The position numbers and the translations under genes are program-made. A stretch of 64,000 nucleotides of DNA. Origin: Minisyncoccota bacterium. GTDB lineage: Bacteria; Patescibacteriota; Minisyncoccia; UBA6257; JAGOQP01. Below, piece after piece: positions 1 through 51,370 of this stretch (within the stretch, counting starts at the first letter, position 1; every line of letters begins with the position of its first letter). The notes beneath the pieces were generated by a model. It saw only the letters and a list, made by a program, of their open reading frames with translations. It was not told the DNA's origin and made no database searches. The stretch covers positions 8,348 through 72,347 of the forward strand of contig JAGOQP010000005.1 in the NCBI GenBank assembly GCA_017991375.1. Direction: 5' to 3'.

Positions 1-450
1 AGTGCGCTCGACGCTATAACTAAAAAGAATCCATTTGCTCCTATTGAAGCGGTGCCACTTCCTCAACTTAGTGGAGCGGTGGCGGGTTCGATTGCTAACT
101 TCGTTTCGTATATGGGTCTTGCTGTTTCCAAGCAGTCGTCATATCCGTATGTCGCGTGGCATTTTGCGAGTTATCTTACCATGAGCGATGCTGTCTCTGA
201 TACATATCTTCAACAAACAGGGAAACTTCCCGCGCTTAAAACACTCATTAACAAAGGTATTCAAGCAGGGGATCGCAAAAGCGTTTTTCTTAAGTCGTTT
301 TTAACCGCTAAAACATGGGGGCAAGCTGACGCTACCGCTATTGCCTCTATATTTCGTTCAATGATATTTAATATTATTTCCGGGAAACTTGATCAGGGTA
401 AGGCGATCGGGGCGGCTCAAGAACAAATAAATCAATTGGGTGCTTACTGA
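1..450 (+). CDS. C-terminal fragment of a putative ABC-transporter solute-binding protein; the gene starts upstream of the window
   Basis: ORF is open to the window edge and stops at TGA 448-450. The 132-aa tail is hydrophilic and loosely resembles family-1 solute-binding proteins. Weak. Confidence 0.3.
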   Translation, partial: SALDAITKKNPFAPIEAVPLPQLSGAVAGSIANFVSYMGLAVSKQSSYPYVAWHFASYLTMSDAVSDTYLQQTGKLPALKTLINKGIQAGDRKSVFLKSFLTAKTWGQADATAIASIFRSMIFNIISGKLDQGKAIGAAQEQINQLGAY

Positions 451-471
451 TGATGTGGTATACTTTTTATT

Positions 472-837
472 ATGACAAAGCGTCTGTTGGTTCTATGTGC
501 TAGTGGTTTTTTGGGGGCTACCTTTTTTGTTTTTTCCATGCCGGCACACGCGGCTTTGGTGACCTGCGGGAACACTGACCAGAATCCATGCACGTTTACT
601 GATCTTCTTAATCTAGCTAATGTTGTTATACGTTTTGCGCTCTTTAACATCGCGCTTCCCCTTGTAACCGCGCTTGTTGTTTTTTTGGGGATTAAACTAG
701 TTATCTCCCGGGGAAAACCGGGGGAGTTTGCTCAAGCCAGAAAACAGCTTACCAATACACTCATTGGACTCGCGATTGCGTTTGGGGCGTGGATTATTGT
801 TGGTACTCTTTTGCGGTTTATCGCGATGCTTAAGTAG
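472..837 (+). CDS. VirB2/TrbC-like T4SS-pilin-family small membrane protein (paralog 1 of 5)
   Basis: 121 aa with a signal peptide (MTKRLLVLCASGFLGATFFVFSMPAHA) and a Cys pair (CGNTDQNPC). Two C-terminal hydrophobic helices are separated by the loop SRGKPGEFAQARKQL. The same architecture repeats in the next 4 genes. Confidence 0.5.
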   Translation: MTKRLLVLCASGFLGATFFVFSMPAHAALVTCGNTDQNPCTFTDLLNLANVVIRFALFNIALPLVTALVVFLGIKLVISRGKPGEFAQARKQLTNTLIGLAIAFGAWIIVGTLLRFIAMLK

Positions 838-853
838 GATATACTTACGATAT

Positions 854-1195
854 ATGAAACATTTTCTCTTCTCACTTCTTGCTTATGGTCTTGCTCTTAA
901 CGCTCGAGCTCAATCGGGGGGTGAGAGTGTAATATTAGAAAACCCCATCCCTGGAACAACCAGTTTGGAAGGGCTTATTGATAAGGTCATTAACTACTTG
1001 TTCATTATCGCGACTCCTATCGCTACTATTATGGCGCTTTACGCCGGGTTTGTTATATTAACCGGGAAGGGAAACCCGGCTAAATTGAAAGAGGGATATT
1101 CTATACTAAAGAATATCGCGATTGGTTATGGTGTTATTATATGCGCCAAGGGTGTCTCACTTTTAGTTATGGAGTTTTTAGGGGTTAACCAATAA
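854..1195 (+). CDS. VirB2/TrbC-like pilin-family protein (paralog 2)
   Basis: ATG at 854 is in frame with ORF 728..1195. Signal peptide MKHFLFSLLAYGLALNARA, then TM, loop TGKGNPAKLKEGYSILKN, then TM. Confidence 0.5.
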   Translation: MKHFLFSLLAYGLALNARAQSGGESVILENPIPGTTSLEGLIDKVINYLFIIATPIATIMALYAGFVILTGKGNPAKLKEGYSILKNIAIGYGVIICAKGVSLLVMEFLGVNQ

Positions 1196-1210
1196 TTATT
1201 TATTATTTTT

Positions 1211-1564
1211 ATGAAAAAACTAGCATATACATTGTTTGCGATAGTTCTTGGGGTCACTATTTTTACTCCAATCGCCCTGGGGGTGACCACGACCCCTCTT
1301 CCTGAATCGCCTATACAGAATTTTGAAGGGGAAAAAAGTGTTATGGGATTGCTGGAGAAGGCCGTTGTGTGGATGTACCGTATATTTTTTGTGATAGCTG
1401 TTTTATATATTCTTATCGCGGCATTCACTATCTTGACCGAAAAAGATAAGGCAAAAGCGTGGGAAAAAGGAAAGGCGCAACTTACTAACGCGGCAATCGC
1501 TATTGTGGTTGCCTTGGTCGCAAGCGGATTTGCGGCAGTCGTTAAATCGTTTCTTACCTCTTAA
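1211..1564 (+). CDS. VirB2/TrbC-like pilin-family protein (paralog 3)
   Basis: 117 aa with a signal peptide. TM, loop TEKDKAKAWEKGKAQLTN, then TM. Confidence 0.5.
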   Translation: MKKLAYTLFAIVLGVTIFTPIALGVTTTPLPESPIQNFEGEKSVMGLLEKAVVWMYRIFFVIAVLYILIAAFTILTEKDKAKAWEKGKAQLTNAAIAIVVALVASGFAAVVKSFLTS

Positions 1565-1567
1565 ATT

Positions 1568-2065
1568 ATGCGACTATTTTTTATTTCGCTTTTTTTGCTC
1601 ATTACTCTTCTTTTTACTGTTTCGGTTGCGTTGGCAGCAAACACGAGTGATTATGTTTCACCACTTCAGGATACGCTCAAATCCCCCATTACCGACTACA
1701 AACAGATTGCTGACGTGAGTACGTCGCGCGGGCTTATCTTTACCGTCATTACGTTCGCGTACTATCTTCTCTTTGCCGTCGCGACGCTTTTTATTATTAT
1801 CGCGGCGTACAATTTTGTTCTTGGTGGCGCTGATAAAAGTGGCAAGAAAGTTCAACTTGCTCAAGCGCAACTTAAGTATGCTATTATCGCGCTTATTGTT
1901 GGGCTTCTTGTTTTAGTGATTCCTAAATTGGTTACTAACACCGTGGAAAATGCCGGCACTGGCGCTAATACAACCGTGCCCCCTCAGAGCACCGCACGGG
2001 GGAATGATACGGATTATTGCACGCTTTATCCACTTGATCCGTATTGTCGCGTGGGGCCATATTAA
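1568..2065 (+). CDS. VirB2/TrbC-like pilin-family protein (paralog 4) with a C-terminal Cys-containing extension
   Basis: 165 aa with a signal peptide. TM, loop GGADKSGKKVQLAQAQLKY, then TM. C-terminal tail ends ...DYCTLYPLDPYCRVGPY. Confidence 0.5.
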   Translation: MRLFFISLFLLITLLFTVSVALAANTSDYVSPLQDTLKSPITDYKQIADVSTSRGLIFTVITFAYYLLFAVATLFIIIAAYNFVLGGADKSGKKVQLAQAQLKYAIIALIVGLLVLVIPKLVTNTVENAGTGANTTVPPQSTARGNDTDYCTLYPLDPYCRVGPY

Positions 2066-2158
2066 TTCGTGCTATGTACATAGAGCCATCGCTGTTTGTA
2101 CTTTTTATTTCTTTGTGCTATCATAGTATCAATAAGTAATTTATTATTAATATTTATT

Positions 2159-2539
2159 ATGAATAAAAAGACGTTGTTAGCGACAGGTATTACCGTGTTG
2201 ATTCTCGGTGTGTCTTTGGTTACCGCATTTGCTCAACCAAGCGGGCCGATCAACATTCCTGGTGTTGGGGTGCAGAATGCAAATCTGACCAGCGTTGGTG
2301 GGTGGGTCGGTGTTTTAATCACTGTTATTCGTTGGTTGTACCATATTCTATTTGTTGTTGCTGTTTTGATGATTATATGGGCGGCGTTCTTGTTCGTTAC
2401 GAGCAAGGGAGATCCAAAAAAGACAGATGTGGCAAAGAATATGATCAAATACGCGATCATTGGTATGATTGTCGCCCTTCTTTCTTACGTGATTGTGCAG
2501 TTCATTCAGAACGCTGTTACTAACACACTTACTTCGTAG
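2159..2539 (+). CDS. VirB2/TrbC-like pilin-family protein (paralog 5)
   Basis: ATG at 2159 (MNKKTLLATG...) within ORF 2096..2539. Signal peptide, then TM, loop TSKGDPKKTDVAKNMIKY, then TM. Confidence 0.5.
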   Translation: MNKKTLLATGITVLILGVSLVTAFAQPSGPINIPGVGVQNANLTSVGGWVGVLITVIRWLYHILFVVAVLMIIWAAFLFVTSKGDPKKTDVAKNMIKYAIIGMIVALLSYVIVQFIQNAVTNTLTS

Positions 2540-2552
2540 TAAACAAAATAAA

Positions 2553-2590
2553 AAACCGCCCCCTGATCGGGGTGGTTTTTTATTTTGCTT
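2553..2590 (+). terminator. Rho-independent terminator after the pilin array
   Basis: Hairpin ccgccccctgatcggggtgg followed by the T-run ttttttatttt. Confidence 0.6.
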
Positions 2591-2627
2591 ACACGGTGTT
2601 GGCGGAAACTCCTAACCTTTGGTCTTG

Positions 2628-2711
2628 TGTCGGAGGGGAGATTTGAACTCCCAAGACATTTCTGTCACTAGCTCCTAAGGCTAGCGCGTCTGCCAATTTC
2701 GCCACTCCGAC
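2628..2711 (-). tRNA. tRNA-Leu (anticodon UAG), type II with a long variable arm
   Basis: Reverse complement is GTCGGAG...CTAGC-CTTAGGA-GCTAG, with variable arm TGACAGAAATGTC, T-arm GGGAGTTCAAATCTCCC, and acceptor CTCCGAC+A. The acceptor stem pairs perfectly. Confidence 0.8.
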
Positions 2712-2789
2712 GTTGTCATGCAGAGATTATATTGTTTCTGTTTTGCCATTCTGATACAGAGCGTACATTGTTATGTATGTGATTGCAAA

Positions 2790-3698
2790 TTACGCGCGAC
2801 GTTTTCCGTGGAATGCTTGGTGGACATTTTTGAGCTCTTTGTTGGTAATATGTGTGTATACTTGTGTCGTGGCGATATTAGCATGTCCCAAAAGCGCTTG
2901 TACTGAGCGAATATCGGCTCCGTTCATAAGTAGATCGGTTGCAAATTGGTGTCTCAATTGGTGCGGGGTTATTTTTTTTACGATCCCTGCTTTTTTTGCG
3001 TAGTGTTGAACAAGACGTTGTATAGTGCGAGGGAGTATTTTTCCAAGAACTTTTGGATTTTTTGCTTTCGACATACTCACAAAAAGCGCTTCTTCCGCGT
3101 CGGGTCTTTTTTCTAGGTATTCTTTTATTGCTTTTTGAGCGCGCGGAGAAAGAAATACCACACGTAACTTTTGTCCTTTGCCTCTTACTGTTATTTCCCC
3201 GCGAGATATATCAAGATATCGAGAAAGCGAACAGAGCTCGCTGATACGCAGACCCGTTGAGAAAAGAGTTTCTAATAGCGCTCGATCACGCAGAGCTTTT
3301 AAGGAGGTGCCCTGAGGGCCCTTGAGAAATCGCTCCAGGTCCGCGTAGTCCACTACTTCTATCTGGCGTTGCTCTATTTTAGGAAGCTCTATTTGTTCGG
3401 GGAGTATGTTGAGAGGAACCTCGTTCTTTACGCAGTATTTTAGAAAATTTCGCAGAGCGATTGCGTAATAACTTTGTGTTTTGCGTTTTAGATATTCTAA
3501 TTCCTTTCCTTTTTTTCGAGATAGAGAGAGTCGAAACTGTTTGACTGCGTACTGCGTGACTTCTTTTATTGTTTTAGCACTGCTTTCTTTTACAAACGTG
3601 TTTAGGTAGCGGCGATAATTTTCCACCGTTTTTGGTGAACGATTTTTTTCTATTTCAAGATAGTCCAGGTAGTCATTTATAAGTTGTTGGAGAGACAT
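2790..3698 (-). CDS. XerC/XerD-family tyrosine site-specific recombinase
   Basis: 302 aa. C-terminal catalytic motif HQLRHQFATDLLMNGADIRSVQALLGHANIATTQVYTH and N-terminal core-binding helices (LDYLEIEKNRSPKTVENY). Confidence 0.8.
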   Translation of the reverse strand: MSLQQLINDYLDYLEIEKNRSPKTVENYRRYLNTFVKESSAKTIKEVTQYAVKQFRLSLSRKKGKELEYLKRKTQSYYAIALRNFLKYCVKNEVPLNILPEQIELPKIEQRQIEVVDYADLERFLKGPQGTSLKALRDRALLETLFSTGLRISELCSLSRYLDISRGEITVRGKGQKLRVVFLSPRAQKAIKEYLEKRPDAEEALFVSMSKAKNPKVLGKILPRTIQRLVQHYAKKAGIVKKITPHQLRHQFATDLLMNGADIRSVQALLGHANIATTQVYTHITNKELKNVHQAFHGKRRA

Positions 3699-3700
3699 AA

Positions 3701-3761
3701 CATGATGCTAATACTAACTAACGACTAACCACCTACAACTAACAACAAGAGAAATCGTTAA
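3701..3761. repeat. 61-nt interspersed repeat, copy A, identical to 34696..34756
   Basis: catgatgctaatactaactaacgactaaccacctacaactaacaacaagagaaatcgttaa occurs identically at both loci. A degenerate copy is at 18171..18218. Confidence 0.9.
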
Positions 3762-4057
3762 TCTTTGACCAGGACCGGGAAGACGATCTTTCATCTTTAG
3801 TCATTAATCCTTGACTGGGAGCGGGGAGGGAATCATTAATCTTTTATCGTTAATTGTTGACCGAGAGCGGGTAGCTATTAACCTTTGGTTTTTGATCGCC
3901 GGTCGTTAATTGCCGAATCTTATTATACACTTTTTAATATTGTGCGACAGATGGGTATATTGATTGTGGCTAATGGCCTTCCTATCTCGTCGCGGCGGGT
4001 TTGGAATGGTGCTCATGCATATGATTGACTTTTGGGGCTAAATGGCATATACTATAG

Positions 4058-7674: not shown

Positions 7675-8124
7675 ATAGTGTTATTTTATGCTTATAAATC
7701 CTTATTAATGGCTATTTTTCTTGCTTTTTAGAGCAACAAAAAAGTCCCTGGGAGACCCCTGGACTGTACCTCCATTATACACGAGTGGGGGAAAAAGTCA
7801 AGTGGGGGCACTGGGTAGTGGTAAGTGAAAAGAGAAAAGTGGAAAGTGGGAAGAGGGGTGAAACATTTAAAGTGGAAAGTCCCCCTTCGTCCACCGTAGG
7901 TGGACTACGGAAGGATGAATGAAAAGCGGAACACTGGGTGAAGAAGAGGGGGTAAATGACTGTTAGTTTATGACTCGTTCCGCGTTTATCGTTTCACATG
8001 TAACTCGTCTATCTTTAATCGTTAACCAGGGACGCGTTTAGTATTTCGTATGGCGTACTTTGTTGGGGTGGATTTGCAACGAAATTGCGTGTTCTTATAG
8101 CGGAGGAGAGTATATGCTGGTATT

Positions 8125-8712
8125 ATGTGTTGTATGAAAGAGATCCTTACGCGGGCATTGGTACTAGGGTGTTTTGATGTTGGAGAGATGGATGGATTGG
8201 TCCGCCTGTATACAAAAGAGCTTGGCAAGGTGACGGCTCGTGCTCGGAGTATTCGCAAGATAACGTCAAAATCTGGCGGACATTTACAGCCACTCCATTT
8301 TGTAGTCACTCGGCTTGTTCGGCGATCGGGTGGTGGTGACGGATATGGCATCGTTGATGCAAGTGTTGATCCTATGTTTATAGGAGCATCTCCTCAAAAG
8401 CGATTTGATCTCATTCCTTTGATCGGGCTTTTAGACCGACTCACTCTAGATTATATGGCTGATGGTCGACTTTGGCTTTTTGTCGAAAAACTTTTTTTAA
8501 AACGATATGATCACCTTGACGCGGTGCGCACGCTCATTTCATTGTTAGGGTTTGACCCACGCTCCGCGGCATGTGCTCACTGTCACGCATGGTCTGTTTC
8601 CGCTTTTGTTTCTGGGCATGATGTTTTTTTATGTGATTCGTGTGCTTTGTCTGTTGATTCAAATGCGGTAGAATGGATAGGAGAGGACAAACAACCAACG
8701 ACTCATAACTAA
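8125..8712 (+). CDS. recO: DNA repair protein RecO
   Basis: N-terminal OB-fold region (ALVLGCFDVGEMDGLVRLYTKELGKVTARAR) and C-terminal Cys4 zinc motif (CAHCHAW...FLCDSC). The 3' end runs into repeat-like sequence (..EDKQPTTHN*). Confidence 0.6.
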   Translation: MCCMKEILTRALVLGCFDVGEMDGLVRLYTKELGKVTARARSIRKITSKSGGHLQPLHFVVTRLVRRSGGGDGYGIVDASVDPMFIGASPQKRFDLIPLIGLLDRLTLDYMADGRLWLFVEKLFLKRYDHLDAVRTLISLLGFDPRSAACAHCHAWSVSAFVSGHDVFLCDSCALSVDSNAVEWIGEDKQPTTHN

Positions 8713-8744
8713 CGACGCGTATTTTTTTGAGAATAAAATTTTAT

Positions 8745-10634
8745 ATGTCACTTGAGGATTTAGAAAAAGAACTTTATAGTGGTCGTCCCATTCACCGAGA
8801 GGCGCCTAACCAATCGTCCTCTACGCCCTCATTAGAAAATCCATCGCCTTTGGGGAGTCCGTGGGGGGTTGCTTCTTTAGACGACAACTCTCGTCCTATT
8901 CAAGTTGGAAGGTACTGGAAATTTATTCTTGTTTTTCTTGTTGTGGTGCTTGTAGGACTTGCTGGACTTGCTGGTTTTTATTTGTATCAATACTTTACCA
9001 CTCGTGATGTTTCGCTTGTGGCCGATGCCCCCAGTGAAATTTCTGTCGGGGTTCCGTTTACTCTTTCTCTTACCGTTGAAAACCTTTCACAAAAAGTACT
9101 TCAAGATTCTCGTGTCGCACTCGCGCTTCCTGATGGAGCGGTTTATTTAGATGATCCATCAAAACGCATCGTATCCATTGATCTTGATCCATTGGCCTCT
9201 GGTGAAGCGTCTCGGCGTGAAATTTCACTTGTTATTACCGGCGCATCGCTTGCCACCTATCGTTTTGAAAGTGTTTTTTCGTATCGCTACGATTCGGGAA
9301 CGCTCTCTAGTCGATTTGATAAGAAAAAAACCGTCGAGCTTCTTGCTCGGGATCCCGTGCTCGCACTTGAGCTTTCTGCTCCGGAAAAAGTGCTTCCTGG
9401 GGAAGATTTTGAAGTCAATATATCATATCAAAACACCGGACAGGTGACGCTTTTGGGGGCGCGTATCGCTCTTACTCTCCCGGTCGGATTTTCTGTTAAG
9501 AACTCAGATTTTGTTGTTGGTAGTGACGGTGTTGTCATTCTTTCCGATATTGCTCCAGGAGGGCGTGGGGTGGTAACACTCTCTGCGACCATGAGTGGCA
9601 AAGCGTATACTTTTTTTTCCATTGACGCGATCGCGCGCATTCCCCTTGGGTCTGTGATGTACGATATTGCGAAAAAGAGTGTTTCTGTTTCGCTTTCTCC
9701 GTCACCGCTCTCGTTGGATATTGGTGTTTCTGGTGGTAGCACCACTACCTATCCTGGGGACCTTCTTTCTTACCAGCTTTCTTTTTCAAATAATTCCGAT
9801 ATTAATCTTTCTGATGTGATTGTTTCGGCAACACTTAGCGGGGACTCTTTTGATCTTTCTTCTGTTGAATCAAGCGGTCACTTTGATGATGTTAAGAAAA
9901 CGATTACATGGACCGCCGCTTCAGAGGGTATTTTAAAAGAACTTCGCGCGCATGATTCGGGGAACGTTTCCTTTCGTGTTCGTATCAAAAAGACATTACC
10001 CACTTCTCAATTAAGCGACAAGAATTTCTCTGTACGCGTTCATGGGGAGGTGACCTCTCCTACCGTCCCTTACTCTGTTGTTGCACAAAAAACAATTGGA
10101 AGCGCAGATCTTGAGGTATCTGTTGGTGGGTCATTGAGCGTTGAGCAGCATGCCTATTTTGCAGATTCATCTAGTGATATAGCAAATGATGGCATGATTC
10201 CTCCACGCGTCGGAATTCCGACGGAATACACTATTCATTGGGACGCGTATGCTTTTTCAACTGATTGGGATGGGGTGCGCGTATCGGCATTTTTGGGTCC
10301 TGGTGTGAAATGGACGGGGAAGGTGAAAACGAATGGAAAAACCGTTCCAACGTATAATGAACGCACGCAAGAGATTGTGTGGGATATTGGACGTGTTAAC
10401 GCTGGGCGAGGGACCGTTGACCCTCCTTTAAGCGCTGTTTTTCAGATTAGTATTATTCCATCATTGAACCAAGTCGGCCAAACTCCTACGCTTGTGGCAA
10501 GCCCTGTTATAACGGGAACTGATGTATTTGTTGGTAAATCAATAACGCGTTCATTGCAGTCGGTCTCCACGCGCGATATAAGCGATGCAGATCGTCCTCT
10601 TAATTACGATAGGGTGGCGGGCAGTGGGCAGTGA
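8745..10634 (+). CDS. Hypothetical membrane-anchored surface protein with repeated beta-sandwich (DUF11/CARDB-like) modules
   Basis: First ATG at 8745 within ORF 8727..10634. Cytoplasmic N-terminus and one TM (FILVFLVVVLVGLAGLAGFYLY). Then reiterated modules such as 'PFTLSLTVENLSQ...LALPDGAVYL' and 'GEDFEVNISYQNTGQVTLLGARIALTLPVGF'. Confidence 0.4.
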   Translation: MSLEDLEKELYSGRPIHREAPNQSSSTPSLENPSPLGSPWGVASLDDNSRPIQVGRYWKFILVFLVVVLVGLAGLAGFYLYQYFTTRDVSLVADAPSEISVGVPFTLSLTVENLSQKVLQDSRVALALPDGAVYLDDPSKRIVSIDLDPLASGEASRREISLVITGASLATYRFESVFSYRYDSGTLSSRFDKKKTVELLARDPVLALELSAPEKVLPGEDFEVNISYQNTGQVTLLGARIALTLPVGFSVKNSDFVVGSDGVVILSDIAPGGRGVVTLSATMSGKAYTFFSIDAIARIPLGSVMYDIAKKSVSVSLSPSPLSLDIGVSGGSTTTYPGDLLSYQLSFSNNSDINLSDVIVSATLSGDSFDLSSVESSGHFDDVKKTITWTAASEGILKELRAHDSGNVSFRVRIKKTLPTSQLSDKNFSVRVHGEVTSPTVPYSVVAQKTIGSADLEVSVGGSLSVEQHAYFADSSSDIANDGMIPPRVGIPTEYTIHWDAYAFSTDWDGVRVSAFLGPGVKWTGKVKTNGKTVPTYNERTQEIVWDIGRVNAGRGTVDPPLSAVFQISIIPSLNQVGQTPTLVASPVITGTDVFVGKSITRSLQSVSTRDISDADRPLNYDRVAGSGQ

Positions 10635-11039
10635 AAAGTTGAACGTTGAACGAAGGAAAGATGAATAAATAATCATTAATCTTTTATCTTTAATCATTGA
10701 CCGCGCAGTGTTTATCGTCCATCTTTGACCACACACAGGTCAGGGCAACCTCCCATGTCTACCCATAGTGGACTACGGAAGGGCACGCAAATGGCATATA
10801 GCTAATAGCTAGGGGCAAAGAGTGTATGGCGAACATGAAGAAAGTGGAATGTCGAACGTTAAACGAGGGAGAGAGAAAGCAGATAATATTCATCTTTAGT
10901 CGCAATTTATTGCTCGTTCCGCGGTTATCTTTTTACGTTTAACTCATCTATCTTTTATCTTTGATTGTTAATCCTTGATTTATGGAGCTTCTTTTTTGTG
11001 GGGTTGCGAAAGAGCTCAAATGTCTATAAGCTTATTTGT

Positions 11040-12374
11040 ATGAAAAAAGAAGATACACAAAAAGATGCCGATTTGATGGATAAAATTGTTTCGCTCTGTA
11101 AGCGGAGGGGGTTTGTGTTTCCCGGGTCTGAAATTTATGGGGGGCTTGCCAATTCATGGGATTATGGACCGCTAGGGGTTGAGCTGAAAAACAATATTAA
11201 GCAATCGTGGTGGAATTTTTTTGTTCATCGGCGATCGGATATGTATGGGCTTGATGCCGCGATTATCATGAATTCAAAAGTATGGGAGGCGAGCGGGCAT
11301 ACAGGAAGCGGATTTGCTGATCCGTTACGTGAATGTATCGCGTGTCATCATCGTTTTCGGAGCGATCAACTTACCATGCACGCGTGTCCTGACTGTGGAG
11401 GAGTGCTTGGTGATGAGCGGCGATTTAATATTTTAATGAAAACATTTATTGGGCCGATTGAGGATTCAACTGCGCAAACGTATTTGCGGGGAGAAACGGC
11501 GCAGGGGATGTTTGTTGATTTTAAAAATATCCTTGACTCCATGTCCCCAAAACTTCCTTTTGGCGTTGCTCAGATTGGGAAGGCGTTTCGTAACGAAATC
11601 ACTCCAGGCAACTTCATTTTTCGCACGCGTGAGTTTGAGCAGATGGAGATAGAGTATTTCATCAAACCGACCGACGATTGGAACGTGTATTTTGAAGAGT
11701 GGCTTTTAGCGATGAAAAAATGGATGGCGACTGTCGGTATTGCCATAGACTATGTGCATGATCTTGAAGTTCCCGAAACGGAGCGAGCGCATTATTCAAA
11801 GCGCACTGTTGATCTGGAGTTCGATTTTCCCTTTGGTCGCAAGGAGCTTTTTGGTATCGCGTATCGAGGAGATTTTGATCTTGCTAATCATCAGCGGGCG
11901 ACTGGTTATGCGTTAACCTATTTTGATGAGGAAACAAAAGAGCGATATCTTCCTCATGTTATTGAACCAACATTCGGCGTTGAGCGCGGGCTTTTAGCTG
12001 TCCTAGTGTCTTCATATCGCGAAGAGACGGTCGGCGATGATACTCGCGCGTACCTTTCTCTTCCCGCGTCGATCGCTCCGTATAAAGCCGCTGTTTTTCC
12101 ACTCATGGCTAATAAACCAGATCTTGTTGCTAAAGCTCAGGATATATACGCCACACTTAGTGGCGCGCGGCTGGGAGCTATCGCGTTTGATGGGGGAGGA
12201 AATGTTGGAAAACGATACCGGAAACAAGACGAAATTGGAACCCCGTATTGCTTTACCGTTGATTATCAGACGCTTGAGGATGATACCGTGACTGTGCGTG
12301 ATCGAGATACTATGACGCAAGAACGTATTGCGGTTGATGATTTGATCGCGTTCTTAAAAGAAAAATGTTCGTAA
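11040..12374 (+). CDS. glyQS: Glycine--tRNA ligase (class II, dimeric GlyQS type)
   Basis: MDKIVSLCKRRGFVFPGSEIYGGLANSWDYGPLGVELKNNIKQSWW is a classic GlyRS N-terminus, followed by class-II motifs and a C-terminal anticodon-binding domain. The true ATG is probably 11040 (MKKEDTQ...) rather than 10965. Confidence 0.9.
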   Translation: MKKEDTQKDADLMDKIVSLCKRRGFVFPGSEIYGGLANSWDYGPLGVELKNNIKQSWWNFFVHRRSDMYGLDAAIIMNSKVWEASGHTGSGFADPLRECIACHHRFRSDQLTMHACPDCGGVLGDERRFNILMKTFIGPIEDSTAQTYLRGETAQGMFVDFKNILDSMSPKLPFGVAQIGKAFRNEITPGNFIFRTREFEQMEIEYFIKPTDDWNVYFEEWLLAMKKWMATVGIAIDYVHDLEVPETERAHYSKRTVDLEFDFPFGRKELFGIAYRGDFDLANHQRATGYALTYFDEETKERYLPHVIEPTFGVERGLLAVLVSSYREETVGDDTRAYLSLPASIAPYKAAVFPLMANKPDLVAKAQDIYATLSGARLGAIAFDGGGNVGKRYRKQDEIGTPYCFTVDYQTLEDDTVTVRDRDTMTQERIAVDDLIAFLKEKCS

Positions 12375-18162: not shown

Positions 18163-18421
18163 TTGGTAATATGATGCTCATCTACTCACTAACGACTAAT
18201 AACCAACAACTAACAACAGCGGTAAGGAAAACTATTAACTGTTGATCCTTGACAAAATGGTTGGCGTTGTTTATGCTTAGTTTATTGAAATCCGCCGAAC
18301 CGAGCGGATTTGTTCTTAAAAAGTAACTTATAATCGAGACCTTACCAGCATAAAAAAATAACTCAACTTCGTATTGGTTTTGATTAAGCATGTTTGAGTA
18401 CTACACACACAAAGAAAATAT

Positions 18422-21871: not shown

Positions 21872-22459
21872 ATGAATCTTGTACCAACAGTTATAGAAAA
21901 ATCTCAATATGGGGAGCGCGCGTACGATATTTACTCGCGTCTACTCAAAGAGCGCATTATCTTTTTAGGTGGACCGGTTACCGACGATGTTGCCAACGCG
22001 GTCATCGCGCAACTGCTCCTTTTGGATCATGAAGATCCCAAAAAAGATATTATTATGTACATCAACAGTCCGGGCGGTTCGGTAACGGCGGGACTCGCGA
22101 TTTACGACACTATGCAACACGTCAAGCCGGATGTTTCTACTATGTGCGTGGGCATGGCGGCGTCTATGGCGGCGGTTCTTTTAGGAGCGGGAGCAAAAGG
22201 AAAGCGATTTGCTCTTCCGAATGCTGAGATTCTACTTCACCAAGTTATGGGTGGAGCCGAAGGACAAGCGACCGAAATTGAAATCACCGCGCGGCAGATT
22301 CTTAAGATTAAAGCGAAGCTTAACGAGATCCTTTCAAAACATACTGGGCAGACACTCTCAAAAATAGAAAAAGATACCGATCGGGACTATTATCTTAGCG
22401 CGTCGGAAGCAAAGGAGTATGGACTTATAGACACGATTATCAAGCAGAAGGGCAAATAA
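21872..22459 (+). CDS. clpP: ATP-dependent Clp protease proteolytic subunit
   Basis: [34 protein letters not shown]...GGSVTAG...[11 protein letters not shown]...LLHQ: Ser-His-Asp triad context. Confidence 0.9.
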
Positions 22460-22728
22460 ACAGATAATCATTAACCATTAATCTTTAATCCTTGACCGAG
22501 GAATGTATGGCGGGATATGAAGAAAGTGGGATGTCACAAGTTAAACGTTCTTCGATTCCGGTCTCATTCGAGTCTGAGGGCCTATCCCTCAGAGTCGAAG
22601 ACAGGATAAATGGAAAAGAGGAAAGGGGTGGCTGTTTATTGTTAATCGCATAATGTTAGTTGCTAATTGAAAAGTGTTCCTTAAGTGGGGCGCTTTTTGG
22701 TTGGGTATTGTTTTGCTATACTCTGTGT

Positions 22729-29033: not shown

Positions 29034-29246
29034 ACGATTGTTGTTAATGAGGGAAGTATATCAAAAAAACGAATCACTCACAAATTATCTTTTTGCGTAT
29101 GTTTTGACGCTTGCTGTTGAGGCGATAACCAATATACGCAGGTCCCCCGACCCCTTTTTTCACGATCGTGAAAAAAGGGGGTTGGGGAGGACAAGGGGCG
29201 AGCCAGAGTGCTTGTTGGATTGATTGGTGACTTATTATAAACGTAA

Positions 29247-29278
29247 AAAACACCGCGAGGGCGGTGTTTTGCATATTG
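29247..29278 (-). terminator. Terminator downstream of the small membrane-protein gene (also faces recA upstream region)
   Basis: aaaaacaccgcgagggcggtgttttgc hairpin. Confidence 0.55.
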
Positions 29279-29291
29279 GATGAATGTACTG

Positions 29292-29495
29292 TTATTTCTG
29301 ATCTGTACCCTGCGTGTTAGAAGATGGTTTCACAAACAAACTTATTATCGAGAAGACAATGAAAATTACTCCAACAATGACTAGCAATGCTACCCTATTT
29401 TTTTCTGAGCCAAGAAACGCAGTCCAGAAAAACAAAACTGCAAAAACAAAAAACATAATCGTTATCCCGAGATTATCCACCACATTCTTGGTCAT
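29292..29495 (-). CDS. Small 2-TM membrane protein, hypothetical
   Basis: 67 aa with two hydrophobic helices. Confidence 0.3.
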   Translation of the reverse strand: MTKNVVDNLGITIMFFVFAVLFFWTAFLGSEKNRVALLVIVGVIFIVFSIISLFVKPSSNTQGTDQK

Positions 29496-29578
29496 TTCCG
29501 GTCTCCTTTCGCGTACTTCGGATGCTAATTGTATGATATATTAGAAATACAATTCTGTCAAGATAAGTATACAACTAT

Positions 29579-33022: not shown

Positions 33023-33520
33023 ATGAATCACATTCGTTTTTGTAGTGATAGCGCTACTGTTACGCAACAACTGGGAGCTACCGTGGCGCGCCATCTTTTT
33101 CGCTCTCGCCATCGAGGGGCCTATACTCTTTTACTTAAAGGTGATTTAGGAGCGGGGAAGACGACATTTACTCTTGGTTTTTTGAAGGCGCTGGGGGTTC
33201 GTCCTTTGGCCGCGAGTCCTACGTTTGTGATTATGAAGAGATACGGGGTTAACAAACAACAGACAACAAACAACAGACAACAAAGAAAAAAAACAAACAG
33301 ACCTAAAAAACAATTGACTATTTATCATTTGGATGCATATCGGTTGCGGGGAAAAAAAGACCTGAGAGCTTTAGATTTTGATTCAATTATGAATGATTCA
33401 TACGCGATTGTTCTTATTGAATGGCCAGAGAATATAAAAGGAATACTGTTTCCCAACAAACTCACCATCCGATTTTCTTATGGGAAAAAAGAGAATGAGC
33501 GGGTGATATCTGTTGGATAA
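33023..33520 (+). CDS. tsaE: tRNA threonylcarbamoyladenosine biosynthesis protein TsaE, with an in-frame low-complexity insertion
   Basis: TLLLKGDLGAGKTTFTLGFLKALG (P-loop) ... SPTFVIMKRY[GVNKQQTTNNRQQRKKTNRPKKQLT]IYHLDAYRL. The bracketed segment is extra relative to the usual TsaE spacing. Confidence 0.75.
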   Translation: MNHIRFCSDSATVTQQLGATVARHLFRSRHRGAYTLLLKGDLGAGKTTFTLGFLKALGVRPLAASPTFVIMKRYGVNKQQTTNNRQQRKKTNRPKKQLTIYHLDAYRLRGKKDLRALDFDSIMNDSYAIVLIEWPENIKGILFPNKLTIRFSYGKKENERVISVG

Positions 33521-34567: not shown

Positions 34568-34695
34568 GGCGCCACCTCCTTTTGGGTTCTGGTACAAATC
34601 ATATCATATTATCAATATATTGTCAATTCTCTTTGAAAAAGTAAGCATGAAAGCTCTTTTTATTCGTTTTTAAATACAAAAGGGGTATAATAAAG

Positions 34696-34756
34696 CATGA
34701 TGCTAATACTAACTAACGACTAACCACCTACAACTAACAACAAGAGAAATCGTTAA
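34696..34756. repeat. 61-nt interspersed repeat, copy B (identical to 3701..3761)
   Basis: Exact 61/61 match to copy A. It ends 17 nt before the PilB-like ATG. Confidence 0.9.
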
Positions 34757-34772
34757 CCTTTTATCACTATTC

Positions 34773-36491
34773 ATGTCTGACATCCAAGATCAACTATCAC
34801 GAATGCGTAGAGACGCGGAAGAACGTGACGCGCAACGCAGGGCATCGTCATATGGACTCTCGTACCTTGCTCCCGAAAAGGTTTCGGTCTCTTTAGACGC
34901 GCTTGGGCTTATCCCAGAAGAAAAAGCAAAACAAAGCCAGTGCGCAACTATTGCCATCAAAGGAAAGCGTATCGCGGTCATCGCCTGTGACTCTAAATTC
35001 TCTCAGACCGTCGCTCAGCTCAAAGAGCTTGAGACACAAGGATACTCAGTTAATCTTTTTATCGTTTCTCTTAGTTCGTTACTGTACGCCTTTTCTTTTT
35101 ATAAATTTGTTCAAAAAGAACGCGGGGCGATTTCTGGGAAAGTCCGCGTTGGATCTCAAATAAATGAGTCATCGGACACTTCTTCCGAAAAAACCGTTTC
35201 TCAAAAAGGACTTGATACTATAGCGGCGGTGCATGCCGCGCTTGAGAATCGTATCGCTGGGGGACAAATTTCCGATATGGTTGATACGTTACTCGCGGGC
35301 GCTTTGGGAACGCGCGCATCCGATATTCATTTGGAACCAGGGGACTCGGTTTCCAAATTACGTTATCGCATTGATGGTAATTTAAATGATGTGCATGGCT
35401 CTCTAAGCAACAATATATATCACTCAATTGTTTCTCGGATAAAACTTCTTTCAAATCTTAAACTTAACGTAAAAGATGAACCGCAAGACGGACGTTTCAC
35501 TATTAATTTTCCCAACAAAGATGTGCAGGTGCGTGTTGCACTAGCGCCATCAGAATTTGGCGAAGTGGTGGTGATGCGTCTTTTGGACCCGGACGCGATT
35601 AACCTTTCGCTTTCTGACTTAGGTCTTCGTGACGATGATCGTGTAATCGTGGAGGAGCAACTTGCAAAGCCGTATGGAATGGCGCTCAATACCGGTCCTA
35701 CTGGGTCGGGTAAAACAACTACTTTGTACGCGTTCCTGCGACACAAAATTACTTCTGAGGTGAAAATTATTACTATTGAAGATCCTATTGAATACCATCT
35801 TGATGGTATCCAACAAACGCAAGTTGACAATGAAGCAGGATACACGTTTGCCTCTGGTTTGCGATCGCTCATGAGGCAGGACCCTGATGTTATTCTAGTT
35901 GGTGAAATCAGAGACAAAGAAACCGCCGAAATCGGGGTGCAAGCGGCGCTTACTGGGCATTTGGTGTTCTCAACTGTTCACGCCAATGAGGCCGCGGGAG
36001 CGATCCCTCGTCTTTTTGATTTAGGAGTAAAAGCAGCAAGTCTCGCGCCAGCTCTCAATTTACTTATTGCTCAACGCTTAGTTCGTCGATTGTGTTCGTC
36101 GTGCAAGGAGAAAGATGAAGCAATAAATGCAGACATAAAGGAAAAAATAAAAGCTCACGCGCTTGCGCTTCCTGCTCGCGTGGACGGGAAAAAATTTGTT
36201 GATGCGTGTGAGTTTTATAAACCGGCTGGGTGTGAAAAATGCAATAATACCGGATTTAAGGGGCGCGTGGGTATTTATGAGCTACTAGTGGTGACTGATT
36301 CATTGCGTGCGCTCATTCAAAAAGAAGTTGGACAAATAGAATTTCAACAAGCGATCGCGCATACCGATTTTGTTTCAATGCAAAGCGACGGCGTGTTAAA
36401 AGTTATGTCGGGCCTTACGACACTTGAAGAAGTTGAGAGTGTGACGGGGAAGATAGCATGGGGGAATCTAGGCGTTAAAAGTAAAGAGTAG
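34773..36491 (+). CDS. Type II/IV secretion-system ATPase, GspE/PilB family
   Basis: GspE N-terminal domain, Walker A NTGPTGSGKTTTLYAF, Asp/His boxes, and a C-terminal tetracysteine (CSSC...CEKC). Confidence 0.85.
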   Translation: MSDIQDQLSRMRRDAEERDAQRRASSYGLSYLAPEKVSVSLDALGLIPEEKAKQSQCATIAIKGKRIAVIACDSKFSQTVAQLKELETQGYSVNLFIVSLSSLLYAFSFYKFVQKERGAISGKVRVGSQINESSDTSSEKTVSQKGLDTIAAVHAALENRIAGGQISDMVDTLLAGALGTRASDIHLEPGDSVSKLRYRIDGNLNDVHGSLSNNIYHSIVSRIKLLSNLKLNVKDEPQDGRFTINFPNKDVQVRVALAPSEFGEVVVMRLLDPDAINLSLSDLGLRDDDRVIVEEQLAKPYGMALNTGPTGSGKTTTLYAFLRHKITSEVKIITIEDPIEYHLDGIQQTQVDNEAGYTFASGLRSLMRQDPDVILVGEIRDKETAEIGVQAALTGHLVFSTVHANEAAGAIPRLFDLGVKAASLAPALNLLIAQRLVRRLCSSCKEKDEAINADIKEKIKAHALALPARVDGKKFVDACEFYKPAGCEKCNNTGFKGRVGIYELLVVTDSLRALIQKEVGQIEFQQAIAHTDFVSMQSDGVLKVMSGLTTLEEVESVTGKIAWGNLGVKSKE

Positions 36492-37225: not shown

Positions 37226-37750
37226 TTATTTACCACTCTTTTTTATTATCTGCATAATAATTCCTTTACCGCCTAAACGATGAGGCATAGTGACGGTGTA
37301 AGGGACCTGAATCATAGCAAGAAATGCTTTAAGACGTTCCTCGGCCCATTCTCTTTTCCCCTTTTCTCTTCCGCGGAGCACTAAACAAATTTCTATCTTG
37401 TTATTTTCCTCTAGAAACTCTTCTGTTTTCTTTGCTCTGATGCGTAGATCATTTTCTGCCGCGCGAGCGGTAATGCGTACCTGCTTGAAATCTCCAGCGC
37501 TTTTGTGAGCTTGTGCCGCTTGCTTTTTTGCCTCTTTCTCCTGTTGATAGCGGAATTTGTCAAAGCTCATTATTTTAGCAATCGGTGGTTGAGCAGTTGG
37601 GGAAACCTCAATCAGGTCAAGATTTTGTTCGAGCGCGCGCTTTAGCGCCTCGTCTTTTTGCATGACGCCGAGGTTTTTACCTTCCTCATCAATAACCCGC
37701 AACTCGGGCGTGGTAATTTGATGGTTGATTTTATACTGCTTGGTAACGAT
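37226..37750 (-). CDS. infC: Translation initiation factor IF-3 with a non-AUG start
   Basis: The ORF-track start 37702 is a TTG. The conserved IF3 N-terminus (IVTKQYKINHQITTPELRVIDEEGKNLGV) continues in frame upstream to an in-frame stop (cta at 37754-56). The most upstream possible start is ATC at 37750-37748. C-terminal domain is typical (ICLVLRGRE...). Confidence 0.8.
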   Translation of the reverse strand: MVTKQYKINHQITTPELRVIDEEGKNLGVMQKDEALKRALEQNLDLIEVSPTAQPPIAKIMSFDKFRYQQEKEAKKQAAQAHKSAGDFKQVRITARAAENDLRIRAKKTEEFLEENNKIEICLVLRGREKGKREWAEERLKAFLAMIQVPYTVTMPHRLGGKGIIMQIIKKSGK

Positions 37751-37840
37751 AAGCTAAAAAATTATTTTTTTTGATGCGAACGTGCATATAGGGCTTTCTT
37801 TATGCGTTCAAATCTCAATAACAGTAGCTGATTTAGGGGT

Positions 37841-37950
37841 GGATGTCAAATGATCGGATATCAGATGTCAGAGGTCGGAGATCAGATATCGGATGGCAGA
37901 GATCAGATGGCGGATATCGGACGTCAGATGTCAGGGGTCAGATATCGGAG
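37841..37950. repeat. Degenerate tandem 9-12-nt repeats (GATATCGGA / GATGTCAGA / GATCAGAT units)
   Basis: ...gatgtcaaatgatcggatatcagatgtcagaggtcggagatcagatatcggatggcagagatcagatggcggatatcggacgtcagatgtcaggggtcagatatcggag... A related short array is at 49427..49485. Confidence 0.7.
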
Positions 37951-38016
37951 GGCCGGAAGCAAATGGCGGGAGTTTTTCTTCCCCATCCTCTTTCGTTAAA
38001 ACTACGGATGACACTC

Positions 38017-38050
38017 CTAAAACAAAATAAGCCGTCTGGCTTATTTTGTT
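38017..38050 (-). terminator. Terminator downstream of ssrA
   Basis: Minus strand: aaaataagccagacggcttatttt + gtttt. Confidence 0.55.
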
Positions 38051-38094
38051 TACGAAGCGCTGCGCACTTCGTAGTCCACTGTAGTGGACGAAGG

Positions 38095-38419
38095 AGTGGA
38101 GATGGCGGGAGTTGAACCCGCATCCAGGATAGACCACTATAAACGTCTACATGTTTAGTTTCAGAAAGAAACGATTTTCGCTCTCTTGATGTCCGTGCGT
38201 GTACGAGAGCGCTCTACGCACGTAAGTTCCATATATAACACCGGTTAACTCCCTATGAAACATCAGGAACCGATGGCCTGCGGCTAAGATACCTTAAGGT
38301 TCTTATGCGTAGGCAAGAGCTAATTTTTGGTTAGCATCTATTTTGTGTGTCGGATTAATGAGGCGACGGCTCAACATGCAATTTGTAGCGCGCGTATCCT
38401 GTCGAGGCCTGGCATCCCC
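38095..38419 (-). ncRNA. ssrA: tmRNA (SsrA)
   Basis: Minus strand: 5' GGGGATGCCAGGCCTCGACAGG..., internal tag ORF GCTAACCAAAAATTAGCTCTTGCCTACGCATAA encoding ANQKLALAYA*, and a 3' tRNA-like end GGATGCGGGTTCAACTCCCGCCATCTCCA. The ~10-nt ends are approximate. Confidence 0.85.
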
Positions 38420-38472
38420 GGTAGTGACTAATAACCTATAACTAACAGCTAACGACGAGACAGAAGAATGAA

Positions 38473-38910: not shown

Positions 38911-39001
38911 GCTCTTTTGTAGTATACATAAAAACGACGCATTGTTATATGCGTTACCGTATTAGTTGAAGAAAGGGCGCATATTTGCTATAGTTTTTTG
39001 T

Positions 39002-42000: not shown

Positions 42001-42676
42001 TTTTTTTGCCGAGGAGCTTTATCAGTCGCTTGTTCATATGTATCGATGCGATGCTAAGGACTCTGTTCATCTGGCGTCATGGCCGCAAAGTTCAAAATCA
42101 ACATTTAATAATGCTTTGTGCGAGCATATGACGCGAGTGCGTTCCATTGCTTCACTCGCATTAGCGTTGCGCGCTGAGCTTGGTATAAAAGTTCGTCAAC
42201 CGCTTGCCACTCTGACGGTTAAGGGAGATGTTTTTTCGGGAGTATTTGCACAAGAACTTCTGGATATTCTTAAAGAGGAGGTGAACGTAAAAAACGTGGT
42301 GTTCGATAAAAATCTTGATACCGATGTTATATTAGATACTGTTATTACGCCAGAACTTAGAGCAGAAGGATTGCTTCGCGAAATGACTCGTGTGGTACAA
42401 GATCTTCGTCAAGAGGCGGGGTATGTGCCGCAAGATACTATCGCGCTGTGGATCGACACCAATGGTTCGCTCGCGCCGCTTCTTCGTACGCATCAGGAAC
42501 GGTTTGCAAAAGACGTTGGAGCATACGTAGTTAATTTTGAAAAAAGCGCACTCTTTGACGCAGAAATAGAGACCAAGGTTGATGATCAGCGGGTGTGGGT
42601 GGGGGTCAAAAAAGAGACAAACAACTCACGACATACAACCAACAACAAGAAAGAAAAGAAGAATAAGAGGCATTAA
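39002..42676 (+). CDS. ileS: Isoleucine--tRNA ligase (type 2, Cys-knuckle type). One frame throughout, interrupted by a single in-frame TAG at 41321-41323, with an embedded histidine-phosphatase domain
   Basis: HIGH = PGIHHVLARAFKD. KMSKS = KMSKSKGN (41507-41530). The editing/CP1 and anticodon-binding regions are present. Across the TAG the frame reads ...[44 protein letters not shown]..., which is the conserved IleRS '..DQ.RGWF' block. A PGAM-like domain (RYIFVRHGEAGHN ... IVVVSHEYPIWMLEAVL) sits between WECSCG and PCKKCGAH. Confidence 0.85.
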
Positions 42677-49568: not shown

Positions 49569-49656
49569 CGTTGAAATAACTCACAACCTACAACCTACAA
49601 CTTACAACAGGGACTTGTGTAGTTAGTCGTCAGTCGTCAGTTGTTAGTCATCTCTG

Positions 49657-51243: not shown

Positions 51244-51370
51244 ATAGTAAATAACTTTATCTTAGGTTTGAGTGAGAGTTTATCGAAGAGAGTTTGTGCG
51301 CAGAAGAATGGCAATGAATCAAGTATCTGTTGTCGGTCGTTGGTTATTAGTCGTAGGTTATACTAGTATT

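Follow-up and report, generated by a model that had tools for sequence, protein, structure and literature searches.

How does one and the same 61-nt sequence come to stand in front of two genes that lie 31 kb apart? The question is raised by contig JAGOQP010000005.1 of a Minisyncoccota bacterium (assembly GCA_017991375.1), a 64-kb stretch of which (positions 8,348 to 72,347; hereafter the window) was analysed here and carries identical copies of the sequence CATGATGCTAATACTAACTAACGACTAACCACCTACAACTAACAACAAGAGAAATCGTTAA beside an xerC/xerD-like recombinase gene and a pilB-like ATPase gene. Homologues of PilB, XerC and NusA place the window in the Paceibacterota (Parcubacteria; Candidate Phyla Radiation (CPR)/Patescibacteria), and its XerC has a 100% identical counterpart in a 'Candidatus Pacebacteria bacterium' metagenome-assembled genome (MAG). 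In the reading that we consider probable, the 61-mer belongs to a dispersed non-coding element built around a tract of degenerate heptamers, whose copy at xerC is resident and was copied non-reciprocally into the pilB leader, thereby changing that leader.

An identical pair of 61-mers

The 61-mer has two exact matches in the 64-kb window, both on the + strand. The sequence-only reading of this DNA had reported the pair, its position next to xerC/D-like and PilB-like genes and its opposite orientation relative to these genes, all of which was recovered; the view that the sequence is not a simple promoter, argued from the orientations, is likewise supported. Copy counts given here and below refer to the window together with ~7 kb of flanking sequence.

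3701..3761, + strand: copy 1 of the 61-mer (exact match), in the divergent spacer between xerC and rpsO, 2 nt from the xerC start codon
2790..3698, - strand: xerC/xerD-like tyrosine recombinase gene adjoining copy 1 (Pfam Phage_integrase and SAM-like domain)
34696..34756, + strand: copy 2 of the 61-mer (exact match), ending 16 nt before the pilB-like ATG at 34773
34773..36491, + strand: pilB-like type IV pilus/type II secretion ATPase gene, 3' of copy 2 (Pfam T2SSE, E=1.7e-120)

No third match with up to three mismatches was found in the window, and none in 100 shuffles. Past the 61 nt, the copies agree at 7 of the next 10 positions, giving an extended alignment of 71 nt at 96% identity, and the flanks farther out are unrelated. 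A larger segmental duplication, which the earlier reading had named as the finding that would make the pair trivial, was looked for, and identity into the flanking genes or sequence was found at neither copy; as it stops at the edges of the 61-mer, the pair is not a segmental duplication.

Independent data are provided by Logan contigs, which derive from a k=31 graph. The contigs L012, L013 and L014 (SRR11088371, ERR3438381/ERR3438382) all stop at window position 3730; L012 represents the same strain and is 100% identical to window positions 1-3730, and L013 and L014 represent a strain with 99% XerC protein identity. The contigs L040 and L041 (SRR11088371, SRR11235434) stop at window position 34725. 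Each of these two positions lies exactly 30 nt inside a copy of the 61-mer, the point at which a repeated 61-mer forces a k=31 de Bruijn graph to branch, so that the contig ends confirm the repeat and exclude an assembly artefact. Furthermore, synteny on both flanks of both copies is seen in relatives.

Composition of the element

The body of the element repeats with a period of 7 nt (AACTAAC GACTAAC CACCTAC AACTAAC). At full length (60-85 nt), the element opens with a non-periodic head (CATGATGCT), after which come a tract of CA-rich heptamers, a linker and the beginning of a tract of T-rich heptamers. A profile derived from the long copies (~80 positions) matched over its full length only at 3701-3779, 18171-18253 and 34696-34765 and at the xerC-rpsO locus of a sister lineage (L015, L016), and all other profile matches (nhmmer) were limited to the central tract.

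3701..3779, + strand: full-length element at locus 1 (nhmmer profile positions 1-81, E=1.7e-20)
18171..18253, + strand: diverged full-length copy 3, upstream of nusA (nhmmer positions 2-78, E=1e-17)

At locus 1, the head CATGATGCTAATA is followed by the CA-rich heptamer tract at 3714-3747, the linker AGAGA and the T-rich tract AATCGTT AATCTTT GACC. Copy 3 comprises the head ATGATGCT, a CA-rich tract and a T-rich tail that terminates in the -35 box TTGACA, and over 36 nt of its core, 89% of the positions agree with copy 1. The 61-mer is composed of 28 A, 15 C, 6 G and 12 T and contains stop codons in all six frames, with 12 C and a single G in the 34 nt of the tract core.

Heptamer periodicity extends across the window. 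Counted as 28-nt segments with at least 18 lag-7 self-matches, lag 7 yielded 303 segments, compared with at most 61 for the other lags between 3 and 13 and 142 for lag 14, the harmonic of 7. Lag-7 tracts cover 14.4% of the intergenic bases versus 0.37% of the genic bases. Several unit families were distinguished: A, CA-rich (RACNNAY, 'CTAACRA'); B, T-rich (AATCNTT, often ending TTGACC); C (YAGTGNN); and D (CRGATRT).

History of the two copies

A sister lineage with PilB and XerC proteins 98% identical to those of the window is represented by contigs from samples DRR4384xx, which cover both loci. Its xerC-rpsO locus (L015, L016) has the same head (ACATGATGCTAATA), followed by a different A-type tract and extra B-type units; since the locus keeps an orthologous, diverged version of the element, copy 1 is resident. 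At the pilB locus, the sister lineage shows conservation of the promoter region as far as GGGGTATAATAA and again of the final bases ahead of the ATG, and homology is interrupted in between.

34695..34762, + strand: replacement footprint at pilB, with BLAST alignments to L007 that end at 34694 on one side and begin at 34763 on the other

The replaced stretch comprises 68 nt in the window (the 61-mer and a few bases) versus an unrelated 72 nt in the sister contigs L007 and L008, which is built from C-type and complementary heptamers. A third leader is present in L009, a relative with 81% identical PilB, and has short stretches in common with L007 on its left and with the window on its right. Judged from these alignments, the pilB copy is derived, with xerC to pilB as the simplest direction of copying.

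Terminal inverted repeats were not detected, the head and tail of the 61-mer not being complementary. Target-site duplications, a search for which had been proposed, do not flank the copies, and neither these nor an empty site were found in the compared relatives, which carry different sequence of similar or greater length. The lack of all three favours templated replacement over transposition. Of the recent transposition or gene conversion previously suggested for the pair, recent non-reciprocal copying is thus borne out by the break in pilB homology (34694/34763) and the diverged xerC orthologue, whereas strict transposition is not.

We propose that an element of 60-85 nt, consisting of the head CATGATGCTAATA, a degenerate RACNNAY tract (CTAACGA/CTAACAA) and a T-rich start (AATCGTT AATCTTT ... 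TTGAC), was copied from xerC into the pilB leader after the split from the sister lineage and would there have overwritten 68 nt downstream of the -10 box, sparing the few bases directly ahead of the ATG. This step was most likely mediated by template switching or gene conversion, for which short stretches of homology between heptamer tracts would have provided the seed, and a dedicated transposase seems unlikely. Several points weigh against this reconstruction. Both identical copies could stem from an unseen third locus. The leader of L009 is neither a hairpin, as in L007 (see below), nor the 61-mer and thus does not reveal the ancestral pilB leader. The homology at the junctions is weak (ATAA on the left, CTTT on the right) and does not demonstrate homology-driven conversion. 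The head ATGATGCT recurs at all three loci, which is not explained by slippage and could point to a specific recognition sequence. Finally, the units are degenerate and not perfect tandem copies as in the classic short tandemly repeated repetitive (STRR) sequences.

Replacement is also seen at the nusA locus: in L032 (NusA 99% identical), the stretch of 80 nt that runs from the stop codon of the upstream gene to the conserved -35 box TTGACA is exchanged for a 195-nt cassette, which is unrelated to copy 3 and related to window positions 10630-10681.

As a competing account, the sequence might be a very small non-autonomous mobile element, comparable to a miniature inverted-repeat transposable element (MITE) or to the small dispersed repeats (SDR) of Nostoc, and moved by a trans-acting enzyme that recognises the head CATGATGCT and the tail ATCGTTAA. 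The SDR of Nostoc measure 21-27 nt, and SDR, MITE-like and mosaic elements (BOX, BIME, Correia) are intergenic, modular, shorter than 100 nt and polymorphic in presence or absence. The window element is likewise dispersed, shorter than 100 nt, mosaic and polymorphic among strains. Mobility would agree with the non-periodic head and tail that three loci have in common along with the tract, with the identical, sharp left edge of both identical copies, and with the different occupancy of two of the three loci in lineages with 98-99% identical flanking proteins; other composite intergenic blocks are dispersed as well (the nusA cassette of L032 and its relative at 10630-10681; families D13 and D14). 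However, unlike SDR and MITE-like elements, the window element has no terminal inverted repeats, target-site duplication or stable hairpin, it is present in three copies, the third of which is strongly diverged, and both variable loci show replacements of similar length instead of insertions into an empty site. Moreover, no transposase is located nearby, and the adjoining XerC-like recombinase is a conserved housekeeping orthologue in syntenic relatives. We therefore regard a mobile element as an unlikely explanation and retain templated copying from xerC to pilB as the preferred one.

The pilB leader

Copy 2 makes up nearly the whole 5' leader of pilB, from about the transcription start, predicted at 34697-34700, to shortly before the ATG. 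Boxes resembling -10 elements were identified at both loci.

34686..34691, + strand: TATAAT -10-like box of the putative pilB promoter (GGGGTATAAT), invariant columns in the alignment with the relatives whose PilB is 98% and 81% identical
3922..3929, - strand: extended -10-like box TGTATAAT pointing to xerC, read by eye; the CTTATTATACAC block is conserved in L015

The TATAAT box presumably acts in the pilB promoter. The box TGTATAAT was not called by a consensus promoter scan that required a -35 box; if it is used, copy 1 would be transcribed in the GU-rich orientation within an xerC leader of ~220 nt. A structured xerC leader of ~236 nt with the GU-rich tract was considered and rejected, as its z of -0.9 is not significant.

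The RNA of the 61-mer and of the whole window pilB leader (+ strand) is essentially unstructured (-2.1 to -4.9 kcal/mol, z -0.6 to +0.3), and the secondary-structure check suggested earlier thus returned no stable predicted fold for the 61-mer on this strand. In L007, by contrast, complementary heptamer tracts form a long hairpin reaching almost to the AUG (-33 to -35 kcal/mol, z -5.5 to -6.9). The leader of L009 folds weakly (-10.4 kcal/mol, z +0.5), so that the hairpin is specific to the L007 lineage and the idea of a hairpin as the ancestral pilB leader was rejected.

Motifs similar to a Shine-Dalgarno (SD) sequence occur within 20 nt of the start codon in 3 of 55 window genes; strong examples, both on the minus strand, are AAGGAGGTG ahead of the ATG at 34567 and GAAGGAGGAGGG ahead of 24216. 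Many genes have a TATAAT-like box 5-25 nt upstream of the start, e.g., rpsO (4048-4053) and the boxes at 49774, 52890 and 61413. This arrangement suggests mostly leaderless or short-leader, SD-independent initiation in the window, and pilB itself looks leaderless in several relatives. With almost no SD sites, leader accessibility probably sets the initiation rate. The window leader would now be G-poor, unstructured and interrupted by stops in all frames, in place of the very stable hairpin of the sister lineage, and the swap to this more accessible leader probably changes pilB expression and translation, most likely upwards.

Known regulatory RNAs were searched with Rfam. At gathering thresholds, a scan of the window returned tRNAs and the tmRNA only, and E-value scans of the three element loci returned nothing beyond a weak caiA match (20 bits vs. 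the 55.5-bit cutoff), which covers the promoter region and only 4 nt inside the element. The constant orientation and stable structure of a cis-regulatory RNA were not found, the 61-mer being oppositely oriented at xerC and pilB and folding at -2.1 kcal/mol (z -0.6). Two further candidates were rejected. In a leader peptide or leaderless mini-open reading frame (mini-ORF) starting from ATGATG, the frame is not conserved among copies: the 61-mer encodes MMLILTND followed by a stop, L015 encodes MMLI followed by a stop, and copy 3 has a 24-codon ORF with different downstream sequence. ATGATGCT occurs 5 times vs. 2.2 expected, which is not significant, and one of these occurrences is the rpsO start codon. 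As a speculation, the mini-ORF idea is kept for the pilB copy, whose ATG has its A 6-9 nt downstream of the TATAAT box. A HutP-like (U/C)AG-N4 binding register on the GU-rich strand was discarded because the UAG spacing within the 61-mer is irregular (6, 8, 7, 4, 6).

Heptamer tracts across the window

Generic degenerate CA-rich tracts (unit RACNNAY, 'CTAACRA') were identified at seven further loci. The pattern of three RACNNAY units followed by RAC gave 20 overlapping matches at 10 loci, compared with none in 100 shuffles. The divergent copies listed in the sequence-only reading at 18171..18218, 38424..38458 and 49583..49650 (an inverted pair) and at the 3' ends of recO (8686..8716) and ileS (42618..42664) are all present. 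Its description as an interspersed family applies insofar as the family is dispersed; it is not homogeneous, since only three loci share the head, the CA-rich tract and the T-rich tail.

8686..8716, + strand: generic CA-rich tract overlapping the 3' end of a recO-like gene and supplying its stop codon (heptamer pattern match)
33251..33281, + strand: AACAAAC/AACAGAC heptamer tract encoding the variable loop of TsaE (heptamer pattern match; newly found)
38426..38456, + strand: generic CA-rich tract in the ssrA-smpB spacer, reading GU-rich in the direction of both genes
42616..42660, + strand: generic CA-rich tract forming the 3' end of ileS
49578..49649, no strand assigned: inverted tract pair between the convergent tRNA-Gly and tRNA-Arg genes (minus-strand hairpin)
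51329..51359, - strand: generic tract in the 5' part of the coding sequence (CDS) 51272-52183 (newly found; 89% complementary to 18192-18219)

The tract sequences at ssrA-smpB and ileS are absent from the orthologous sites of L009. Units are degenerate within a tract, as in the body of the 61-mer, and some tracts have a 14-nt sub-period, e.g., that in tsaE. Eight of 10 tracts are CA-rich on the + strand, which is G-rich and probably the leading strand; no conclusion is drawn from this bias because most genes are also on the + strand. In the tRNA-Gly/tRNA-Arg spacer (49570-49655), the minus strand has a minimum free energy of -33.8 kcal/mol (z -4.6) and the plus strand one of -15.2 kcal/mol (z -0.3); the hairpin forms on the minus strand only because its G-U pairs become C-A mismatches on the other strand. 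Based on this folding prediction, it may be an orientation-specific terminator or a processing stem of the tRNA-Arg transcript.

Comparison of strains offers a view of how the tracts change. The TTATCAC unit is present three times in L007 vs. once in the window, a local unit expansion, and the strain differences in the CA-rich tract at the xerC locus are replacements and indels of 8 and 17 nt, with no clean steps of 7 nt. We propose that heptamer tracts turn over very fast via unit slippage and wholesale replacement. In tsaE (33244-33302), a variable loop of ~25 residues is encoded by a heptamer/14-mer tract (AACAAACAACAGAC, 2.5 copies); the same loop is encoded by a GTTGAAC/GTGGAAC tract (GTTGAACGTGGAAC, two copies) in L007, whose PilB is 98% identical, and by a third sequence in L009, with the reading frame preserved in all three. 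Tract turnover thus also takes place inside a coding region.

The T-rich tracts ending in TTGACC were considered as UP-element and -35 promoters, a role rejected since most are not followed at 16-18 nt by a -10 box. Promoter spacing was recognised by eye at two sites only, nusA (TTGACA-17-TATGCT) and rpsO (TTGACT-17-TATACT), and the rpsO site was also called by the consensus promoter scan. The xerC-rpsO spacer additionally contains an 18-nt motif, TTGACYNRGRSCGGGNAG, in three copies (3765-3782, 3809-3826 and 3857-3874; spacing 44-48 nt), each preceded by a T-rich heptamer tract and most without a -10 box at promoter distance. The third unit and the sequence following it (~56 nt) are missing in the sister contig L015, and in the window this stretch is flanked by the direct repeat TCGTTAATTG (3847-3856, 3903-3912).

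The large intergenic regions 7675-8124, 10635-10964, 22460-22659 and 37703-38095 are mosaics of common blocks, including blocks of 57 nt (7967-8023 and 10906-10962; 82%), 60 nt (10652-10711 and 22447-22506; 78%) and 31 nt (10835-10865 and 22517-22547; 87%). The motif GTGGACTACGGAAGG or its hairpin form recurs near 7890-7915, 10765-10785 and 38068-38095, and the Logan contig L032 terminates inside one of the mosaic blocks. A D-type tract of ~100 nt (CGGATAT/CAGATGT units; 37848-37951) is located between infC and the tmRNA gene, and the ORF 37843-38115 that covers it is probably spurious. Its position, directly 3' of the conserved GGGTGATGTCAAATGAT, is kept in L009 (12978-13091), in which it forms an inverted pair; the tract sequences of the window and L009 are not alignable.

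Relation to known heptanucleotide repeats

On sequence grounds, the body of the 61-mer, which the sequence-only reading could not match to a described element, is assigned to the known class of bacterial heptanucleotide simple-sequence tracts, comprising STRR, long simple sequence repeats (SSR) and TAACTGA-like repeats. Exact matches to a 29-nt core, in which three positions are two-fold degenerate, are present in six unrelated genomes of the scanned genome collection (Scytonema, Coleofasciculaceae, Pleurocapsales, Lachnoclostridium, Lacipirellulaceae and Thermoanaerobaculia), compared with an estimated chance expectation of ~0.002. In four of the six genomes the core lies in longer heptamer runs of the same type, some with an inverted partner tract, and in the other two it lies in a short isolated tract. 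Its presence inside heptamer arrays of unrelated genomes places the window tracts in the known heptanucleotide-repeat class. The viral contigs contained no match to the 29-mer, and their five matches to a head-plus-tract pattern correspond to one AT-rich coding sequence and were dismissed as a chance match.

Among Paceibacterota relatives, the distribution of heptamer tracts is sporadic. L021 is saturated with them, including the complement of an A tract just upstream of the -10 box of its pilB, and L029 has an A tract directly after the pilB stop codon, whereas L022, L027 and L028 are essentially without heptamer tracts.

The window tracts share several features with cyanobacterial STRR and long SSR: tandem heptamers are dispersed intergenically, several unit families are present per genome, and inverted tracts form hairpins, and the 29-nt core is found exactly inside the heptamer arrays of Scytonema, Coleofasciculaceae and Pleurocapsales. 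Classic STRR differ from the window tracts in their longer arrays of perfect units and in the units themselves (CCCCAGT, TTGGTCA and CAACAGT). Similarities also exist to the TAACTGA repeats, which occur in marine Beggiatoaceae, Cyanobacteria and some Bacteroidetes and are located in SD-less leaders (MacGregor, 2015, PMC4679880). In these repeats (PMC4679880), as in the window, the unit is 7 nt long and overwhelmingly intergenic, stops are present in all forward frames, intrinsic RNA structure is lacking, leaders are without an SD sequence and the phylogenetic distribution is sporadic. TAACTGA can be rotated to CTGATAA, from which the window units CTGACAA, CTAACAA and CTAACGA differ by one or two bases. 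Unlike the TAACTGA repeats, the window units are degenerate copies, the tracts are not concentrated just upstream of starts and are found in either orientation and also at the 3' ends of genes, a single genome carries several unit families, the tract is dispersed together with non-periodic flanks as an element of 61-85 nt, and the host is a CPR bacterium. According to PMC4679880, which summarises Mrazek et al. (2007), no long SSR class is commoner in prokaryotes than heptanucleotide repeats, and these are phylogenetically scattered. The library of papers that was searched contained none linking heptanucleotide repeats to CPR bacteria.

Possible roles of the tracts

Could the pilB copy have been fixed for its function? 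The CA-rich tract might be a selected cis-acting RNA element, either an unstructured, SD-independent translational enhancer or a multivalent array bound by a single-strand RNA-binding protein, e.g., ribosomal protein S1 or a cold-shock protein, and a cis-acting role of this kind has been proposed for TAACTGA repeats (PMC4679880). In the pilB leader the tract is unstructured and in the sense orientation, the genome is almost free of SD sites, the unit is one or two bases from the TAACTGA of SD-less Beggiatoaceae leaders (PMC4679880), and an S1-domain protein and PNPase are encoded nearby. On the other hand, tracts are antisense at xerC and ssrA-smpB, form the 3' ends of recO and ileS, and are located inside the tsaE CDS and after tRNAs. 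They are missing at orthologous sites of L009 and, as A-type tracts, lie upstream of the -10 box in L021 and after the stop codon in L029. Selection for such a function is accordingly improbable in our view.

A broader conjecture, to which we also attach a low probability, is that heptamer-tract cassettes constitute a modular and exchangeable toolkit of untranslated regions (UTR) in SD-poor CPR bacteria. Templated copying between loci would swap leaders and spacers and thereby retune surface and attachment genes, such as that of the type IV pilus ATPase, from strain to strain, in a manner similar to phase variation and operating by cassette replacement, not by unit number. Within this toolkit, the head CATGATGCT might be a recognition or priming site.

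Considerably less likely still is a role of the C-rich, G-poor and unstructured tracts, behind genes and in leaders, in loading Rho (as rut-like sites) or in insulating transcription. The composition of the tract core (12 C and 1 G in 34 nt) and its lack of structure would suit such sites, several tracts begin at a stop codon or tRNA 3' end or no more than 20 nt away from one (recO, ileS, the gene before nusA, tRNA-Gly and tRNA-Arg), and by eye no intrinsic terminator was seen after the gene ending at 18162, where no terminator scan was run. However, two tracts are antisense to local transcription, the same tracts are abundant in cyanobacteria, which to our knowledge lack Rho, and the tracts are only 30-45 nt long, whereas typical rut sites are longer. 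Least probable by far is a trivial origin of the identical pair by chance, larger segmental duplication or MAG assembly artefact, for which only the low sequence complexity of the tract speaks and which is refuted by the absence of shuffle matches, by identity that is limited to 61 nt with unrelated flanks and includes the non-periodic head and tail, by the synteny of both flanks of both copies in relatives, and by the breaks inside both copies in independent assemblies of three or four samples.

Other differences among relatives

Further differences between the window and its relatives were observed. In a class II aminoacyl-tRNA synthetase gene, probably glyS, ~140 nt (11301-11438) encoding a CxxC...CxxC insertion are non-homologous to 183 nt in L032, with the rest of the gene 95-96% nucleotide-identical; this mosaic in a coding sequence indicates that recombination is active in this population. 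A 474-nt segment (29100-29572) downstream of recA and upstream of clpB, which overlaps two small ORFs (29074-29274, - strand; 29314-29544, + strand), is missing in L007 with a clean BLAST breakpoint. The ileS gene is split into two ORFs (38966-41323 and 41429-42676; 785 and 415 amino acids) in the window, compared with a single protein of 1207 amino acids in L009-L011, which carries an inserted His_Phos_1 domain; window positions 41245-41351 are not alignable to L009. The split may be genuine, or it may reflect a frameshift, a pseudogene or a sequencing error.

Close to xerC, positions 52-2539 carry five or six small paralogous genes in tandem that encode T4SS_pilin (TrbC-like) domains and are conserved in all relatives (L012, L013, L015, L017), and L013 contains three extra genes (DUF134, DUF5320 and one unknown) between xerC and this cluster. 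In the lineage of L017-L020 (XerC 89% identical), four independent Logan contigs begin exactly 60 nt upstream of xerC with TGAGTCAACCGAAGGACTTGTCCTGAGTCA, so that another repeated sequence probably occupies the xerC-upstream site there.

Implications

New here is a heptanucleotide-tract element of the STRR/TAACTGA class in a CPR genome, together with the replacement of a leader between near-identical strains. In practical terms, heptamer tracts break short-k assemblies of CPR genomes at predictable places. The pilB locus represents a natural experiment, in which three close lineages have three different leaders between the same -10 box and start codon: the CA-rich, unstructured 61-mer, a hairpin with a folding energy of -35 kcal/mol and a leader of neither kind. 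As SD sequences are nearly absent, these variants offer a test of whether leader accessibility controls translation and of whether the tracts are functional or a mutational by-product. If our reading is right, heptanucleotide-repeat biology, previously described for cyanobacteria, Beggiatoaceae, Bacteroidetes and a few others, would extend to the Candidate Phyla Radiation.

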